IMG/VR virus record: IMGVR_UViG_2778261136_000010
Reading direction: 5' to 3' (one strand)
From: a virus
Taxonomy: Duplodnaviria > Heunggongvirae > Uroviricota > Caudoviricetes
DNA: 22,471 nucleotides
In this document: positions 12,393 to 21,232 of the stretch, piece after piece
How the letters are laid out: each line of letters begins with the position of its first letter
Position numbering within the stretch: the first letter of the stretch is position 1
Notes under the pieces: generated by a model
The model's input: the letters and a program-made list of their open reading frames with translations, nothing else
Database searches by the model: none
Told to the model about the DNA's origin: nothing
Position numbers and translations under genes: made by a program

Positions 12393-13817
12393 TTACTTAC
12401 GTGTTTCAACTATATTCAGCCCCTTATAAAGGCTTTGATGGATATATACAGAACCAGTATTTGGCAACATTAAATCAGCATCTTCACATCGGAATCTAGC
12501 CGTACCGGAATTGCCCAACCGGACACCAATCACAGAAGCATTAAATAGAGTTTTCATCAATTCACGAGAAGTATAGCGCTTACAAAGGTCAGGCGCTTTC
12601 TCTTCAATCTTACTGATGAATTCTTCTGTAGAATTATATCTATGCTGCGTCTGACGTAAAGATTCCAATAGCTCACCAAAATGAGGGTAGAGCCTTTTGT
12701 ATTCTTGTTTTAAGTCCTCAACTTTCCAAGCGCTGTACCGTTCTTCAGCTATTCTAATTATATCCTTTTTTATTTCAGAAGCATTAGCATCACAGCGTTT
12801 TTGGCATTCTTGCAAAAACTGAATAACTTCTCTTGGGCGCAAAAATGTGCGCTTCACCAAATAGTTAAATGGTGAAATACTTCCTCTCATTTCACCTTCC
12901 TCAAAAATATCATCTATAGTTATATTTTCCGGCAATCTGGCGTTCACCATATCTTTCAACAACTCTGGTGTCCAGATTATTTCTTCTTCAATTGCTCGGT
13001 GTTTATCTTTATCATCAAATTCCAGCCCTTGATAAATATCAGAGCGTAAAAATGTTACAATATGAATACCTTTGGCTCTAGTATCAGAATAACTATCATT
13101 AATATCTTTTGTTGCCTTCAACAAGCCAATCAAAAGGCTTTTGGCATCATCCGATCCATCCCAAGAATCATCTAATCGATCAGTGGCAATTAGCACCCCA
13201 ATATCTGTACAAATTTCTTTAAGCTCGTCAAGGATGATTTTTATTATTTGAGGTGTCAATGGTGCTTGCGAAGCATCCTTATTAAACCCCACAGCATATC
13301 CGAAAGCCTCAAAATTGAATGAACTTAATCCCGAGAGTAACTTCCTTGCAGTTCCCAAAGTAGTTGGCGATATACCACCATAGTTATCAGAAACAAATTT
13401 TTTAATTCTAGCAAGGGCCTCCCGAGGTCTTTTCTCTGAAAATTGCCTACCTGACCTAATAATTTCTGCCGCAGCCTCAACAGCTATTGCAAATTTCCAA
13501 GCATTACAATGTGCCTGTTCGGGTAACAACCCTTGCTCTTGATATTGTTTTAATGCTCCCCAAGCATACTGGTCTGGGGTCATGACATTTACGATAACGT
13601 CCTGCCCATATTTTGCTCTTACCAACCTTGGGAGTTGGGTAAAGATGGATGATTTCCCAGCCCCCTTTCTTCCAAGAAAATGGGCACTATAGAAACTCAG
13701 AGCTTGCTCAACTTGAGGAGTATTGATGAAATAATCAGCCAACCTTCTATCAGCTTCAGCATCGACAGTACCAAAGTTGAGTCCCTTAACTGTAAGGCCT
13801 AACGCATCTAACCGCAC
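12393..13817 (-). CDS. Hypothetical P-loop NTPase (474 aa), AT-rich cargo gene in the cos-proximal variable region; candidate phage-defence / exclusion protein, family not recognised
   Basis: GTG start at 13817 with an AAGGA Shine-Dalgarno 6 nt upstream. Walker A GRKGAGKS at residues 49-56; Walker B-like GVLIATDRLDD near residues 207-217. Markedly lower GC and different codon usage (AGA, ATA, TTA) than flanking phage genes. Own terminator. No TOPRIM or other effector motif recognised by eye. Confidence 0.7.
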   Translation of the reverse strand: MRLDALGLTVKGLNFGTVDAEADRRLADYFINTPQVEQALSFYSAHFLGRKGAGKSSIFTQLPRLVRAKYGQDVIVNVMTPDQYAWGALKQYQEQGLLPEQAHCNAWKFAIAVEAAAEIIRSGRQFSEKRPREALARIKKFVSDNYGGISPTTLGTARKLLSGLSSFNFEAFGYAVGFNKDASQAPLTPQIIKIILDELKEICTDIGVLIATDRLDDSWDGSDDAKSLLIGLLKATKDINDSYSDTRAKGIHIVTFLRSDIYQGLEFDDKDKHRAIEEEIIWTPELLKDMVNARLPENITIDDIFEEGEMRGSISPFNYLVKRTFLRPREVIQFLQECQKRCDANASEIKKDIIRIAEERYSAWKVEDLKQEYKRLYPHFGELLESLRQTQHRYNSTEEFISKIEEKAPDLCKRYTSRELMKTLFNASVIGVRLGNSGTARFRCEDADLMLPNTGSVYIHQSLYKGLNIVETRK

Positions 13818-13964: not shown

Positions 13965-13992
13965 ACGCAAAAGCCCGCCAGTTCTGGCGGGC
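13965..13992 (-). terminator. Putative intrinsic terminator downstream of the tum-like operon
   Basis: Seen: GCCCGCCA-GTTC-TGGCGGGC hairpin (13973-13992), followed on the minus strand by TTTTGCG. Confidence 0.45.
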
Positions 13993-14127
13993 CTTAGCAA
14001 AAACGATCCTCAAACGATCATGCGATCTCATGCGGCATAGACATGCACTACAGAGCTAACGCCTCGCAAGGGCTCGTTGTTCAACGTTGCTGACGCCAGA
14101 AACAAGTTCAGACGCCAGCAACGTTTC

Positions 14128-14361
14128 TTAATGCAGCCAGCTGTCGTCTTCCCACACCTTCTGCATAATTTTCATCACTTGTTTTCTTTCTTCGTCCAGT
14201 TGCAGTCCGGTCAGTTCCACACCGTTAGAGCTACCTTTGCGGATACGAATTACCGTTTTGGGATACAGGGGGCGCAGATTGCGGTAAAGCTCGGATTCAA
14301 GGGCGTCCAGTGTAGACAGGCTAATCTTCTGCTCTTTATCGATCATTATTTCAATGCGCAT
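14128..14361 (-). CDS. DinI-family protein (SOS-regulated; homologous to the DinI-like part of the 186 Tum antirepressor)
   Basis: Start placed at ATG 14361 (MRIEIMIDKEQKISLSTLDALESELYRNL...VWEDDSWLH), with a GAGGTGA Shine-Dalgarno upstream. Aligns by eye with E. coli DinI (MRIEVTIAK...ETWESADDWFVSE). The ORF track extends to 14433. Confidence 0.8.
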   Translation of the reverse strand: MRIEIMIDKEQKISLSTLDALESELYRNLRPLYPKTVIRIRKGSSNGVELTGLQLDEERKQVMKIMQKVWEDDSWLH

Positions 14362-14371
14362 AAAAGTCACC

Positions 14372-14560
14372 TCAGCTGATGACATCCATTGAGCGGTTGT
14401 ATTCGTGGGTTCTGATTTTTGCCATGAGTTCATCTGTCAGTTCAGAAACCCACTGCAGGGCCAGCCCCTTCTCTTCATCACTACACTCACTAGCAGCTAC
14501 AAGCTTAAGAAAAAAATCAATGCGCTGGAGCTTCAAAGACTCCAAAAAATAGTCCTGCAT
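14372..14560 (-). CDS. Small protein (62 aa), first gene of the LexA-controlled operon; possibly the N-terminal part of a split Tum-like antirepressor
   Basis: ATG at 14560 with an AGGAGG Shine-Dalgarno 4 nt upstream; stop TGA at 14372-14374 lies 11 nt before the DinI-like ATG. No recognisable motif. Confidence 0.5.
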   Translation of the reverse strand: MQDYFLESLKLQRIDFFLKLVAASECSDEEKGLALQWVSELTDELMAKIRTHEYNRSMDVIS

Positions 14561-14602
14561 CTTTCCTCCTATGACACCAAAGCAATACTGTATACATAAC
14601 CA

Positions 14603-14618
14603 CTGTTTATATTTACAG
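14603..14618 (-). promoter_or_regulatory. LexA operator (SOS box) overlapping the promoter of the tum-like operon
   Basis: Seen: perfect CTGT-N8-ACAG (CTGTTTATATTTACAG). On the minus strand it overlaps a candidate sigma70 promoter, TTTACA-17 nt-TACTGT. A weaker second box-like sequence lies at 14588-14603. Confidence 0.7.
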
Positions 14619-14712
14619 TATATAATAATCTTACTGATGTAAAACGTTTTTTTACGTTCATCAGCCTGATATGCCTGGTATTATTAAGAGCACGAATTGT
14701 TAACCCGCGTAA

Positions 14713-17127
14713 TTAATACAGATTCCGCCACTTATCATCTTCCTGCAAACGCTGGTTCCGATAGAAGATACGCAGGCCTGCTCCTGACGGAATACTGCCA
14801 CCGCGAAGGAGTAAATCGACCTCTTTCTCGCTGCCATCAAATCCTCTGGACTTCAGTTCATAGACGAGCTGCTGTCGCTGATGATCTGTAATTCGCTGTT
14901 TGTAGTCTTTACGCCGTTTCGGCTTAACCAGGCGTAACCTTGCTGCCAGCTCCCGGCGCTCTTTTTTGCTCATACTGTGCAGGTAATCGTGCAACTCCTT
15001 GTCATCCATGCGGGTAATGTCCGTTCTGGTGTCCCCATCAGCTGATTTATCTTTCTCCTGTTGGTTCAAATTTTCCGCAAGGGGACAGTTATTGCCACGA
15101 GTCCAAGGGGCGCAAGCGCCCTGGTCGGCTGCCGCCTCCTGAACGTCAACGGCTTTACGAACCATTTTCCACTTCACTGCATGAGTGCAGATCTTGCCCT
15201 CTGCAATGGGTGACCAGATGCCATAAATACGAATGCCGTGATCGCCATAGGCGGTCGGCTCTTCGTTGATTTCATAAGCGGTTCTGATGAGGTGATATTT
15301 ACGGGGAACCAGTACGCCGCCCTGCTTCATGATGTAGGTGGCAAAACAACCAGCATCAGCAGCAGCCAGGATGGCATCAAGGCGCGGGTTATCCAGTACC
15401 GGCGCACCTGCTTTTTTGTCCCCCTGTTGCCTTGCCGCCTGACCAGCCAGCAATCGCAGTTCACGGTAAGCCTGACGCCCCGGAATGCCAAAGAAGCGGA
15501 ATTGCTGAACACGATGCAAAGACGCCCAGGCATTCACGTATTCAGCGTTATCACGCAGAGATTTACCCGTTTCCTTGCTGATCTCGCCAGCCAGACCACG
15601 CCCGTCAATGTTCTTACTGATGTATTTCGCTATGTAGCTTGTCGGCGTTCCTTTGCGCGGGTTAATCAGCTCAGACTTAAAGCGCGGCCCCGTGTTATTG
15701 CCCAGCTCCTCGCGGTCTTCACGGATAGCAAACTTACGCAACAATGCAGTAATGGCGCGGCGGTCTTTTTTGCGCATGAAACACAACAGGTGCCAGTGAA
15801 CTGTGCCGTCGTGATGCGGCTCAGCCACCCGCACGCCATACCAGCGCAACCCGGCTTTGTGCATCGCCTTACGAAATGCAGCAAACATACCGACCAGATA
15901 ATCGCTGCTTTGTCTTACCGTCGCATTTGTCCAGGTCGGGTTGGGCCTGCCGTTATTTAGCGTGGAATGGAAACGTGACGGACAGGTGATGGTGTAGAAA
16001 ACGGCGCAGTCACCGCGCATTTCCGCGATAAGCTCCAGACCTTTAACACAGGCCATCATCTCATTGCGGCGATGCGCAGGGTTGCTGCTGCTGGCGTTTA
16101 CCACATCCTCCATATCCAGCGTGTCGCCGTCTTCGTTCACCAGTTCATGAGAACGGAAAAACTCCAGCGACTTACGGCGCTGCTCACGTTTATGCATCAC
16201 GGCTTCATAGCTGACATAGGGAGATGCTTTTTTGCTGACCAGGCAAACAGCACGCAACTGCTCTTCCCGCCATTCGCAACGCATCTTCCATAATTTCCGG
16301 TACCACCAGTCGGCGCACAACATACGCGCCAGCGAACCCGGAATGAGTTCATAGGGCACGGGTTTACGGCGGTTTCTTTTCCGGCGGAGTTGCTCAAACG
16401 CAGGCGGTATGACATCCAGTCGCAGGGTTTCTGCTGCCACCTTTTCCCATGTCTTGCGGATTTCTTCTGGCTTAACATCATCGGTGGCGTACAAATCACC
16501 ACAAGCGGCATCAAGACACATGCTCATATGCGCAGCGACAAGAGTAGACAGGCGTTTCACCTGATTCTGACTCATTTCAGGCAGGATCAGCAGACCCTCC
16601 AGCCCTTGATGGCTTGCCATAAAACGGAAAGAAACAGATAGCTGACTGTCACGTACACAATCCAGTCGCTCCAGACATGGCTTAATCGTCTCACGCAAAT
16701 AGCGGGAATAAGCCTTTGGCCTGCCCAGGCTGCTGAAGTATTCGATACGTTGCATCAGCGGCTTGCTGATGTGGGTGGGCTGGGCGCTGACGTCCGCCAG
16801 AATGACCATGTCCGGGTTAAAACGCTGCTGCTCATGCGCCAGCTTTGCCCGACTAATGAGCTTATCCTGCTCCATTTCGCGCTGGACAGGATCACGGGAT
16901 TCATTAAAGAAATAACGCTCCCAGACCTGTTCACTCAATTCCTCGCGGCGCAGCTGTTCCTGCTCGTTATCGGCAGCATACAGAGTGATCAGGTTTGAAA
17001 GCGCAGAAACCGGCGCAACTTCCGCCGGGTCCAGATAAGGGTTTATGGCCTTTTTCGGGCCATTCCATGAAAATGCTGCAGCGGCCTCGTTAAAGCCGCT
17101 AGAGTCGCTCATATCGTCATGACTCAT
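14713..17127 (-). CDS. A: Replication initiation protein gpA (rolling-circle HUH endonuclease)
   Basis: 804-aa ORF with ATG at 17127; HUH motif in [11 protein letters not shown]; tyrosine motif YIAKYISKN. Position as P2/186 A. Confidence 0.85.
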
Positions 17128-19566: not shown

Positions 19567-20076
19567 TCACAGCAAACCGAATGAAGCACCAAGGCCGGTC
19601 ACGGTATCAACTGCACTCGCCATCGCAGGATTAGCCTGTAAACGGGCCTGCAATGAAACAGCCGCCAGCGCCATCAGTCGTGTTACAGAGTTAATGCTGC
19701 TGATAGCATCACGACGACCGGCACAGGTTTTTACATCGCCAGATACCGCACCTGCAGCAACACGCCCGATCTCTGCAGTTGCACTCATGACGTAATGTGG
19801 CAGTTTCTCTTTTGCCACCTCATTAATCGGTACACATGGCAGACAATGAATCTGTGCCAGAAAACCATCTACCAACGTTGAATCTTCAGTCAGATCGGTA
19901 AGCAGCCAGATTTCTGGTGCGGTTAATAAATGAGGTTGAGCTGGGTTCAGCTTGTTCCGCAGAATCTGCACATTCATGCCCGCACGTTCTGCCAGTTGCA
20001 CCAGGTTGTGGCGCAGTGCGAATTCACGACAGGCTTCATCAAAATGTGGATGTTTGGAAACTTGGTAATCAAACAT
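19567..20076 (-). CDS. cII: CII-like lysogeny establishment regulator (186 CII homologue)
   Basis: Start placed at ATG 20076, giving 169 aa ([15 protein letters not shown]...[15 protein letters not shown]...). Length and sequence match my recollection of phage 186 CII. The ORF track gives a TTG at 20082. Confidence 0.85.
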
Positions 20077-20108
20077 GGTCAATGCCTCTGATGTATCTCA
20101 GAATCGAA

Positions 20109-20330: not shown

Positions 20331-20455
20331 GATGCAACATTCCTCGTTTAATGATGATTAATCAGGACGAATACGGATCGTTTGTATTTTGTGAACACCA
20401 TAAACATACGATCGCACAATGAAATCGTCAAGATAAAAGTTCACTTGGAGTGACC
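20331..20455. promoter_or_regulatory. Lysis/lysogeny switch region between apl and cI
   Basis: Candidate apl promoter on minus: TTGACG (20431-20426), 17-nt spacer, TATGTT (20408-20403). Candidate cI promoter on plus: TGAACA (20392-20397), 17 nt, CACAAT (20415-20420). These are assignments by eye; operator sites not resolved. Confidence 0.45.
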
Positions 20456-21025
20456 ATGAATTTGGAGAAAGGCGGACGAGGCGCTATAGAGCGCATGGTA
20501 GAAGCTTATGGATTCAAAACTCGACAGGCGTTGTGCGATCATTTAGGAATCTCTAAAAGTACACTCGCCACACGCTACATGCGTGACTCATTCCCAGCAG
20601 AATGGGTAATCCAGTGCGCCCTTGAAACGGGCACCTCGCTTAATTGGCTCACAACCGGACATGGTTCAAAGCAAACTTCAGGTAATACAAATACTATGGA
20701 AGTTGCTAAATATGTATTATCTGATGGTGCCTTGCGTGAAGACAGTTTTTATATTTTTGATAAGGGATTTCTACCCTCTACGTTTAAAAAACCTTTTGTC
20801 ATCACAGATAACAATTCTGAATTTATTTGTGATAAAGAATTTGATGATATACGTGATGGTAAATGGGTAATAAGTATTGATGGCGAAATAACAATCCGCG
20901 ACATTACTCGTTTACCCGGTGGAAGAATCTTCGTTGAAGGTGGAAACAGAGCCTTCGAGTGCAAGATAGAAGATGTTGAAATAATTGGAAAAATTATAAG
21001 TTTAACAATTAAGTACGTTAGGTAA
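20456..21025 (+). CDS. cI: CI immunity repressor (186-type)
   Basis: Start placed at ATG 20456 with GGAG upstream, giving 189 aa; N-terminal HTH (TRQALCDHLGISKSTLATRYMRD). The ORF track gives a GTG at 20450. Confidence 0.85.
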   Translation: MNLEKGGRGAIERMVEAYGFKTRQALCDHLGISKSTLATRYMRDSFPAEWVIQCALETGTSLNWLTTGHGSKQTSGNTNTMEVAKYVLSDGALREDSFYIFDKGFLPSTFKKPFVITDNNSEFICDKEFDDIRDGKWVISIDGEITIRDITRLPGGRIFVEGGNRAFECKIEDVEIIGKIISLTIKYVR

Positions 21026-21040
21026 TACCGGGAGGAAACT

Positions 21041-21232
21041 ATGCTTGGTAAGGTATTTTTTGTGGTTTTATCATGCTCTTTGTTATTAAACCCACTAACT
21101 ACCTATGCTAAAAATTATCCTTGTTCTGGGAAAAAGGGAGGTGTCTCTCACTGTACCTCCGATGGTAAGTTCGTTTGCAATGATGGAACTATTAGTAAAT
21201 CAAAAAAAATCTGTACTAAAAACTCGCGATAA
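21041..21232 (+). CDS. Small secreted cysteine-rich protein (63 aa), moron candidate between cI and int
   Basis: ATG at 21041 with a strong GGGAGG Shine-Dalgarno; signal peptide [23 protein letters not shown]; ~40-aa mature peptide with 4 Cys; AT-rich. Confidence 0.55.

Follow-up and report, generated by a model that had tools for sequence, protein, structure and literature searches.

In coliphage 186, the Tum protein (146 aa) is a single fused polypeptide with a DinI-like C-terminal half, encoded directly behind the replication gene A and controlled by a LexA-regulated promoter; internal starts annotated within the gene also give the DinI-like part alone. In the excerpts of Lemire et al. (2011; PMC3121763) considered here, 186 Tum is described as inhibiting DNA binding by the CI repressor, tum is described as split in two in Fels-2 and PSP3, and the upstream gene of PSP3 is cited as the carrier of antirepressor activity. 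The PSP3 genes, tumA and tumB, form a two-gene SOS operon with a LexA box after gene A, and the annotation of tumA reads 'similar to 5' end 186 tum; UV induction of prophage'. In Fels-2, to which the lethality of a lexA null mutation is attributed in the same excerpts, the corresponding genes are STM2728 and STM2726.1 (DinI family). These excerpts also describe the dinI-gfoA/gftA operons of the Gifsy prophages, which are likewise LexA-controlled and pair a DinI homologue with a small antirepressor, and in which deletion of the dinI homologue left induction unaffected. The Gifsy operons differ from the locus described below in having the reverse gene order, unrelated antirepressors and repressors, and a lambdoid backbone.

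Genetic evidence comes from DuoHS, a prophage of E. coli HS. Ortiz de Ora et al. (Nat Microbiol 2025; PMC12055606, preprint PMC11195241) deleted the DuoHS gene ECHS_RS04495, which they call tum. As given in the excerpts of these two texts, the deletion primers fused the ATG to the TGA and kept GGTGACTTTTATGCGCATTG, so that the DinI-like gene and its Shine-Dalgarno (SD) sequence were left intact. With mitomycin C, neither the delta-tum strain nor a lexA(Ind-) strain showed lysis or viral foci, and an SOS reporter behaved normally in the delta-tum strain; the excerpts contain no complementation of the deletion. Because the DinI-like gene was intact in the mutant, this phenotype indicates that induction requires the 62-aa gene and that the DinI-like gene alone is insufficient.

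We compared these systems with a locus in a 22,471-nucleotide stretch of viral DNA (hereafter the window). We regard it as highly probable that this locus is an intact SOS-induction operon of a Fels-2/DuoHS-like prophage, composed of two cistrons behind a LexA-repressed promoter, and that its split arrangement is the common state of such operons. The window prophage is accordingly predicted to be SOS-inducible.

Organization and sequence signals of the operon

The window contains a P2/186-family prophage in reverse orientation. Its early genes are on the minus strand, among them cII (20082..19567), a dam-like gene, and replication gene A (17127..14713), while int and a 186-type cI are on the plus strand. 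The SOS operon lies downstream of A, and the position of its first ORF (ORF1) immediately after A is the one found in 186, PSP3, Fels-2, and DuoHS. Following the minus strand from A, one meets a stem-loop, a putative -35 element, a LexA box, an SD sequence, a 62-aa ORF, a 10-nt spacer, and a 77-aa ORF (ORF2), after which come an inverted repeat and an intrinsic terminator. The two ORFs that the earlier note had placed in different frames at 14128-14560 are confirmed on the minus strand (14560..14372 and 14361..14128).

The putative LexA-controlled promoter, which by analogy would be the counterpart of 186 p95, consists of a -35 TTTACA (14643..14638, minus strand) and, after a 17-nt spacer, a -10 TACTGT (14620..14615, minus strand) that overlaps the LexA box. 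In 186, the annotated p95 combines TTCACA with TACTGT across an 18-nt spacer and shows the same overlap between the -10 and the LexA site. A generic sigma-70 scan of the window flagged no promoter at the operon, since the -10 matches at only three of six positions. The predicted LexA box, TACTGTAAATATAAACAGTG (14620..14601, minus strand), agrees with the consensus at 17 of 20 positions, compared to 18 in 186 and 19 in PSP3. It holds the single perfect copy of CTGT-N8-ACAG in the 22.5-kb window (14603-14618), 41 nt upstream of ORF1, and is unchanged across the window, DuoHS, Fels-2, and 813R9. A perfect core of this type was found upstream of the tumA-type gene in 29 of 40 species loci from Enterobacterales. 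A second LexA-like 20-mer, CAGTGGTTATGTATACAGTA (14586..14605, minus strand), is found 15 nt downstream of the main box and is weaker, with 15 of 20 matches; of its two halves the right one alone is a good half-site, and the left part differs among relatives.

ORF1 (14560..14372, minus strand) starts with ATG, ends with a stop codon at 14374..14372, and is the orthologue of STM2728 and ECHS_RS04495. Its SD sequence, AGGAGG (14565..14570, minus strand), sits 4 nt upstream of the ATG and is kept in all aligned relatives. ORF2 (14361..14128, minus strand), a tumB-type DinI-family gene, is in the +1 frame relative to ORF1 and has its own SD sequence, GAGGTGA (14367..14373, minus strand), which overlaps the TGA stop of ORF1. 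The earlier note gave ORF2 its own ATG and SD; the ATG, which it placed 11 nt after the upstream stop, follows at 10 nt, and the product it counted as 78 aa has 77 (78 codons with the stop). A longer reading of ORF2, as a 101-aa ORF from an ATG at 14433, was rejected: residue 1 of ORF2 coincides with residue 1 of the DinI structure 1GHH, and all ORF2 homologues begin at the 77-aa start.

In the window allele, the junction of the two genes can fold into a hairpin (14383..14366, minus strand; -12 kcal/mol, z -2.0) that covers the ORF1 stop and has the ORF2 SD in its 3' arm. We rejected such an SD-hiding hairpin as a general device for translational coupling, as 20 distinct junctions gave no consistent structure and z-scores were mostly 0 to +1.7. 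Hairpin changes of compensatory appearance were seen in ST437phi4.1 and in one other locus (L028).

Downstream of ORF2, the sequence GCCCGCCAG-AA-CTGGCGGGC followed by TTTTGCG (13992..13966, minus strand) is a putative intrinsic terminator; the 50-nt segment around it folds at -25.1 kcal/mol in RNAfold, and it was absent from the scan-tool output. Directly after the last operon gene there is a long inverted repeat, AACGTTGCTGGCGTC...GGCGTCAGCAACGTT (about 14083..14125, minus strand), which may be an RNA 3'-end or stabiliser element. A similar repeat stands just after the tumA-like stop in loci lacking dinI (L027, L037, and L057). An Rfam scan of the whole window matched no family. In 186, Fels-2, E. 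coli HS, and KP12, the next gene after the DinI-like part is a homologue of orf97 (comparison regions: L001, 3152-3883; L003, 5105-5836); the window has none in 13993..14127 (minus strand), where the operon passes straight to the terminator.

At the level of the whole operon, DuoHS is the same, with an identical LexA box, identical SD sequences, and the same 10-nt spacer. ECHS_RS04495, also 62 aa, differs from ORF1 only by T51S, the DinI-like ECHS_RS04500 differs from ORF2 at one residue, and the CI proteins are 94% identical. The difference lies in the downstream cargo: DuoHS has an orf97-like gene and another ORF, whereas in the window no such gene precedes the terminator and a Sll1717-family ATPase is encoded after it. 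Fels-2 has the layout of the window and nearly identical products (98.4% for the 62-aa protein and 98.7% for the DinI-like protein), but its CI is only 37% identical overall (70% in the N-terminal domain, NTD, and 23% in the C-terminal domain, CTD) and it retains the orf97 homologue. PSP3 shares the operon plan, but its TumA belongs to a different, very diverged subfamily, and its two genes share a frame and are separated by 3 nt. Coliphage 186 shares the genomic position, the LexA-controlled promoter, and the overlap of TACTGT with the box; it differs in its fused Tum, and its CI is 32% identical to that of the window.

The ATPase mentioned above is a 474-aa P-loop protein (12393..13817, minus strand) that matches NCBIfam NF047389 (Sll1717-family ATPase, E 2.5e-84) and has weak similarity to the DS41_1 anti-phage protein; no Pfam or PADLOC match was found for it. 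It lies at a site of variable cargo that separates the SOS operon from the portal gene and that in relatives holds the orf97-like and other ORFs (Fels-2, E. coli HS) or a Hypoth_Ymh protein (813R9), and it is a candidate defence or moron gene. Between cI and int lies a 63-aa ORF (21041..21232, plus strand) that has several cysteines and an N-terminus resembling a signal peptide and is probably a moron for lysogenic conversion; the matching slot in E. coli HS holds the annotated gene ECHS_RS23290.

Relationship of the two products to 186 Tum

ORF2 matches the Pfam DinI family (PF06183) at E 2.4e-22 and 79.4 bits against a cut-off of 24.2, is 77% identical to PSP3 TumB, and aligns end to end with E. 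coli DinI (PDB 1GHH; residues 1-75 on 1-77). Its score against the NCBIfam equivalog for chromosomal DinI (41.9) is below the cut-off of 111, which makes it a member of the DinI family and not the orthologue of host dinI. Alignment with residues 71-145 of 186 Tum (40% identity, E 4e-23) shows the counterpart in that protein, and on this comparison ORF2 corresponds to the DinI-like C-terminal half of Tum.

ORF1 required more sensitive methods. BLASTP gave no alignment of the 62-aa protein with either the 186 Tum N-terminus or PSP3 TumA, no model in Pfam or NCBIfam covers it, and in PHROGs it is phrog_698, labelled unknown function. A database search returned 484 close homologue clusters, mostly of 62 aa. 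A shallow profile, restricted to homologues more than 80% identical, gave hhalign P-values of 0.0018 against the Tum N-terminal family and 0.095 against the PSP3 TumA family, and in every alignment the shared Cys-x6-[LI]A[LI] motif was in register. An exhaustive profile search of 1.84 billion representatives then provided 88 relatives, 87 of which were informative; these are short, stand-alone proteins, and none is fused to a DinI domain. The remaining one is a 1205-aa protein with six weakly matched stretches.

With a profile built from diverse members of these 88 relatives (Neff 4.3), the connection to Tum became clear. In hhalign, the Tum N-terminal family was matched with 96.8% probability and P 2.3e-10, columns 4-44 aligning on 4-44. 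In hmmsearch, the same profile detected full-length 186 Tum (E 7e-10) and every one of 120 Tum N-terminal-type proteins (E 1e-8 to 1e-12), and none of the reversed-sequence decoys came up at E values up to 10. The motif common to ORF1 and 186 Tum is C-x6-[LI]-A-[LI]-x-[WL]-[VI]-[SA]-[ED]-[LI], in which the Cys is at position 26 of both proteins. We conclude from these profiles that ORF1 is a genuine, very diverged homologue of the Tum N-terminal half. The earlier note had proposed aligning both ORFs with 186 Tum; ORF2 aligns directly, while ORF1 fails by BLASTP and succeeds by profile. Taken together with the DinI similarity of ORF2, 186 Tum corresponds to both modules in fused form. In Yersinia phage MLG42 and phage 500465-1, where the two cistrons are in frame, tblastn shows 186 Tum collinear over both. 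The PSP3-type TumA family is related to the 186 Tum N-terminus (P 1.6e-6), and its similarity to the ORF1 family is weak even by profile (hhalign P 0.002; hmmsearch E 0.1-6).

The AF2 model of ORF1 is a confident two-helix hairpin (pLDDT 89.6), and its turn contains the conserved Cys26. A Foldseek search of the PDB with this model gave only generic helical hairpins with E above 1, and a profile search of PDB sequences with ORF1 gave no match; neither result is informative about function. The earlier description of the locus as a Tum-like SOS operon is borne out by the predicted LexA box, the position after A, the DinI match, and the profile homology to Tum.

The two-cistron layout and alternative explanations

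The separation of the two modules is widespread. The two-gene layout occurs in 84 phage records and is annotated in Fels-2, PSP3, 813R9, and others; the locus is present in 1125 of 5426 complete E. coli genomes, with PGAP calling two genes in every entry among those listed. The tumA-type gene was a separate cistron in all 40 species loci from Enterobacterales. A DinI-like gene followed 8-13 nt downstream in 21 of these and was absent from the other 19, and where it was present its frame relative to the tumA-type gene was 0, +1, and +2 in 7, 6, and 8 loci, respectively. The lengths of 62 and 77 aa are identical across 11 phages and 21 species loci. The 186-type N-terminal module is also found alone after gene A, and in ESSI2_ev129 a 70-aa relative of the 62-aa gene stands by itself. 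In the phage collection, fused Tum occurs in about 28 records, all of them 186-like Eganvirus.

Strong purifying selection acts on the two ORFs. The dN/dS of ORF1 is 0.068 against MLG42 and 0.087 against ST437phi4.1, and the values for ORF2 are 0.096 and 0.081; several homologue pairs have dN = 0 at dS of about 0.1. The 484 homologue clusters of ORF1 and the low dN/dS of both ORFs exclude that these are chance ORFs. Split tum is, therefore, the common state and not a lesion. As the earlier note had considered, two separate polypeptides are made, a reading borne out by the conserved split layout, the three frame relations, and purifying selection. That note had held that its idea would fail if two-gene operons were common in intact inducible prophages and the 62-aa ORF lacked similarity to the Tum N-terminus; such operons are indeed common, but the similarity is found by profile.

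The other reading in the earlier note was that a frameshift had split tum, with consequences for SOS inducibility; such an event would have broken an ancestral fused gene in this prophage and left the element crippled or non-inducible. The ORFs do lie in different frames, their combined 139 aa are near the 146 aa of 186 Tum, and fused forms exist in the 186-like Eganvirus records. The window does lack the single uninterrupted ORF of 186-type Tum, as a stop codon, the 10-nt spacer, and the frame change intervene, but neither does it resemble a frameshifted pseudogene: its alignment with intact, inducible relatives (Fels-2, 813R9, and the prophage of E. coli HS) is collinear and shows no indel within either ORF, dN/dS is 0.07-0.10, and the layout is conserved. 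Moreover, the ORF lengths stay constant while the spacer varies and all three frames occur, each cistron has its own SD and ATG, no member of the 62-aa subfamily is fused, and the excerpts on DuoHS (PMC12055606) report mitomycin C induction with the same allele. We give a frameshift almost no credence, and the impaired inducibility that would go with it is likewise unsupported. Hardly more credible is programmed recoding, in which a +1 frameshift or a bypass of the stop codon would yield a Tum-length fusion as the real antirepressor. The frame of ORF2 stays open over the 24 codons that precede its ATG, overlapping the 3' end of ORF1 (the 101-aa ORF noted above), and in PSP3 and some homologues both ORFs are in frame with a stop codon alone between them. 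Against recoding, the frame relation is not conserved and 19 of 40 loci lack dinI altogether; the SD and ATG of ORF2 are conserved, and by eye the overlap has no evident slippery motif, only an A5 run on which a -1 slip would lead into the wrong frame.

An explanation of another kind accepts the two cistrons and the need for the 62-aa protein in induction but has it act elsewhere than on CI: on Apl, CII, LexA, or RecA, or as a transcription factor. CI binding by the 62-aa subfamily is proposed by analogy to 186 Tum, and the fold searches, with generic helical hairpins as the only hits and no solved relative found, leave room for such a role. The homology to the N-terminal half of a protein that, by its annotation and in the excerpts of PMC3121763, inhibits CI DNA binding speaks against it, as does the covariation of antirepressor subtype with the HTH-domain subtype of CI in the phage collection (see below). 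The normal SOS reporter in the delta-tum strain (excerpts of PMC12055606) further indicates that the 62-aa protein has no action on signalling through LexA or RecA. We judge a target other than CI to be unlikely, though less so than frameshifting or recoding.

Antirepressor type and the CI repressor

Under the preferred reading of an intact two-cistron operon with an antirepressor of CI, DNA damage would stimulate LexA cleavage through RecA and thus derepress the promoter. The box is seen in the sequence, and its regulation is proposed from 186 p95 and the lexA(Ind-) phenotype of DuoHS. The 62-aa helical-hairpin protein of TumA type would then accumulate and bind the 186-type CI directly, inactivating it, and loss of CI activity would derepress the lytic promoter. 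For this step, the need for the protein in induction is taken from the near-identical DuoHS gene and the binding to CI from 186 Tum. The 77-aa DinI-family protein would be a separate accessory product, whose most probable role is to modulate RecA filaments and SOS signalling.

The presumed target is the 186-type immunity repressor CI (20450..21025, plus strand), which has the Pfam domains Phage_CI_repr (residues 11-74) and Phage_CI_C (85-183). In phages whose 62-aa protein is 98-100% identical to that of the window, CI is only 37-55% identical overall to the window CI, DuoHS excepted. The two domains contribute very differently to these values: among carriers of the window-type 62-aa gene, identity to the window is 68-100% in the helix-turn-helix (HTH) NTD and 23-38% in the CTD (91% in DuoHS). 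The CI NTD of ESSI2_ev129, whose TumA-like protein is 49% identical to ORF1, is about 64-65% identical to that of the window, and the values for PSP3 and 186 are 48% and 39%, respectively. In the phage collection, every record among those listed with a CI NTD at least 60% identical to the window has a gene of the window type or the ESSI2 type, and those listed at about 51% or below have the 186 type, the PSP3 type, or no Tum. Antirepressor type thus tracks the HTH domain of CI and not its CTD, which is a new observation. ESSI2_ev015 (LR597649.1) is a partial exception: it shares one TumA-like type with ESSI2_ev129 (LR597640.1), but its CI NTD is 47% identical to the window. The CI proteins also differ in architecture. 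Those of the window, Fels-2, and 186 have a single HTH domain in about 190 aa, and those of Klebsiella phage Kp4871-2 (L007, an ORF of about 318 aa) and PSP3 (L016, 286 aa) have two tandem N-terminal HTH domains.

One TumA allele could serve a set of CI repressors that have only their HTH NTD in common, a suggestion from sequence comparison that we hold tentatively and at slightly less than even confidence. If true, the antirepressor would recognise the DNA-binding domain irrespective of the oligomerisation domain attached to it, and co-resident Fels-2-like prophages with different CI CTDs could cross-induce. Lineage co-inheritance, where the two genes share a history through the common ancestry of the phage lineages, is the alternative to recognition of the HTH domain.

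The operon itself is ordinary, intact, and already described, and our additions to it are modest, namely the homology to the Tum N-terminus that profiles reveal for the 62-aa protein, and the link between antirepressor type and the CI NTD. RefSeq, PHROGs, and most phage records list the 62-aa gene as 'hypothetical protein' or 'unknown function', yet it would decide whether a prophage present in roughly one in five complete E. coli genomes is SOS-inducible. Labelling it as a TumA-type antirepressor, and not as a broken tum, avoids wrong predictions of non-inducibility. The profile link to Tum and the association with the CI HTH domain together provide a starting point for testing how repressors are recognised by antirepressors of the Tum type.
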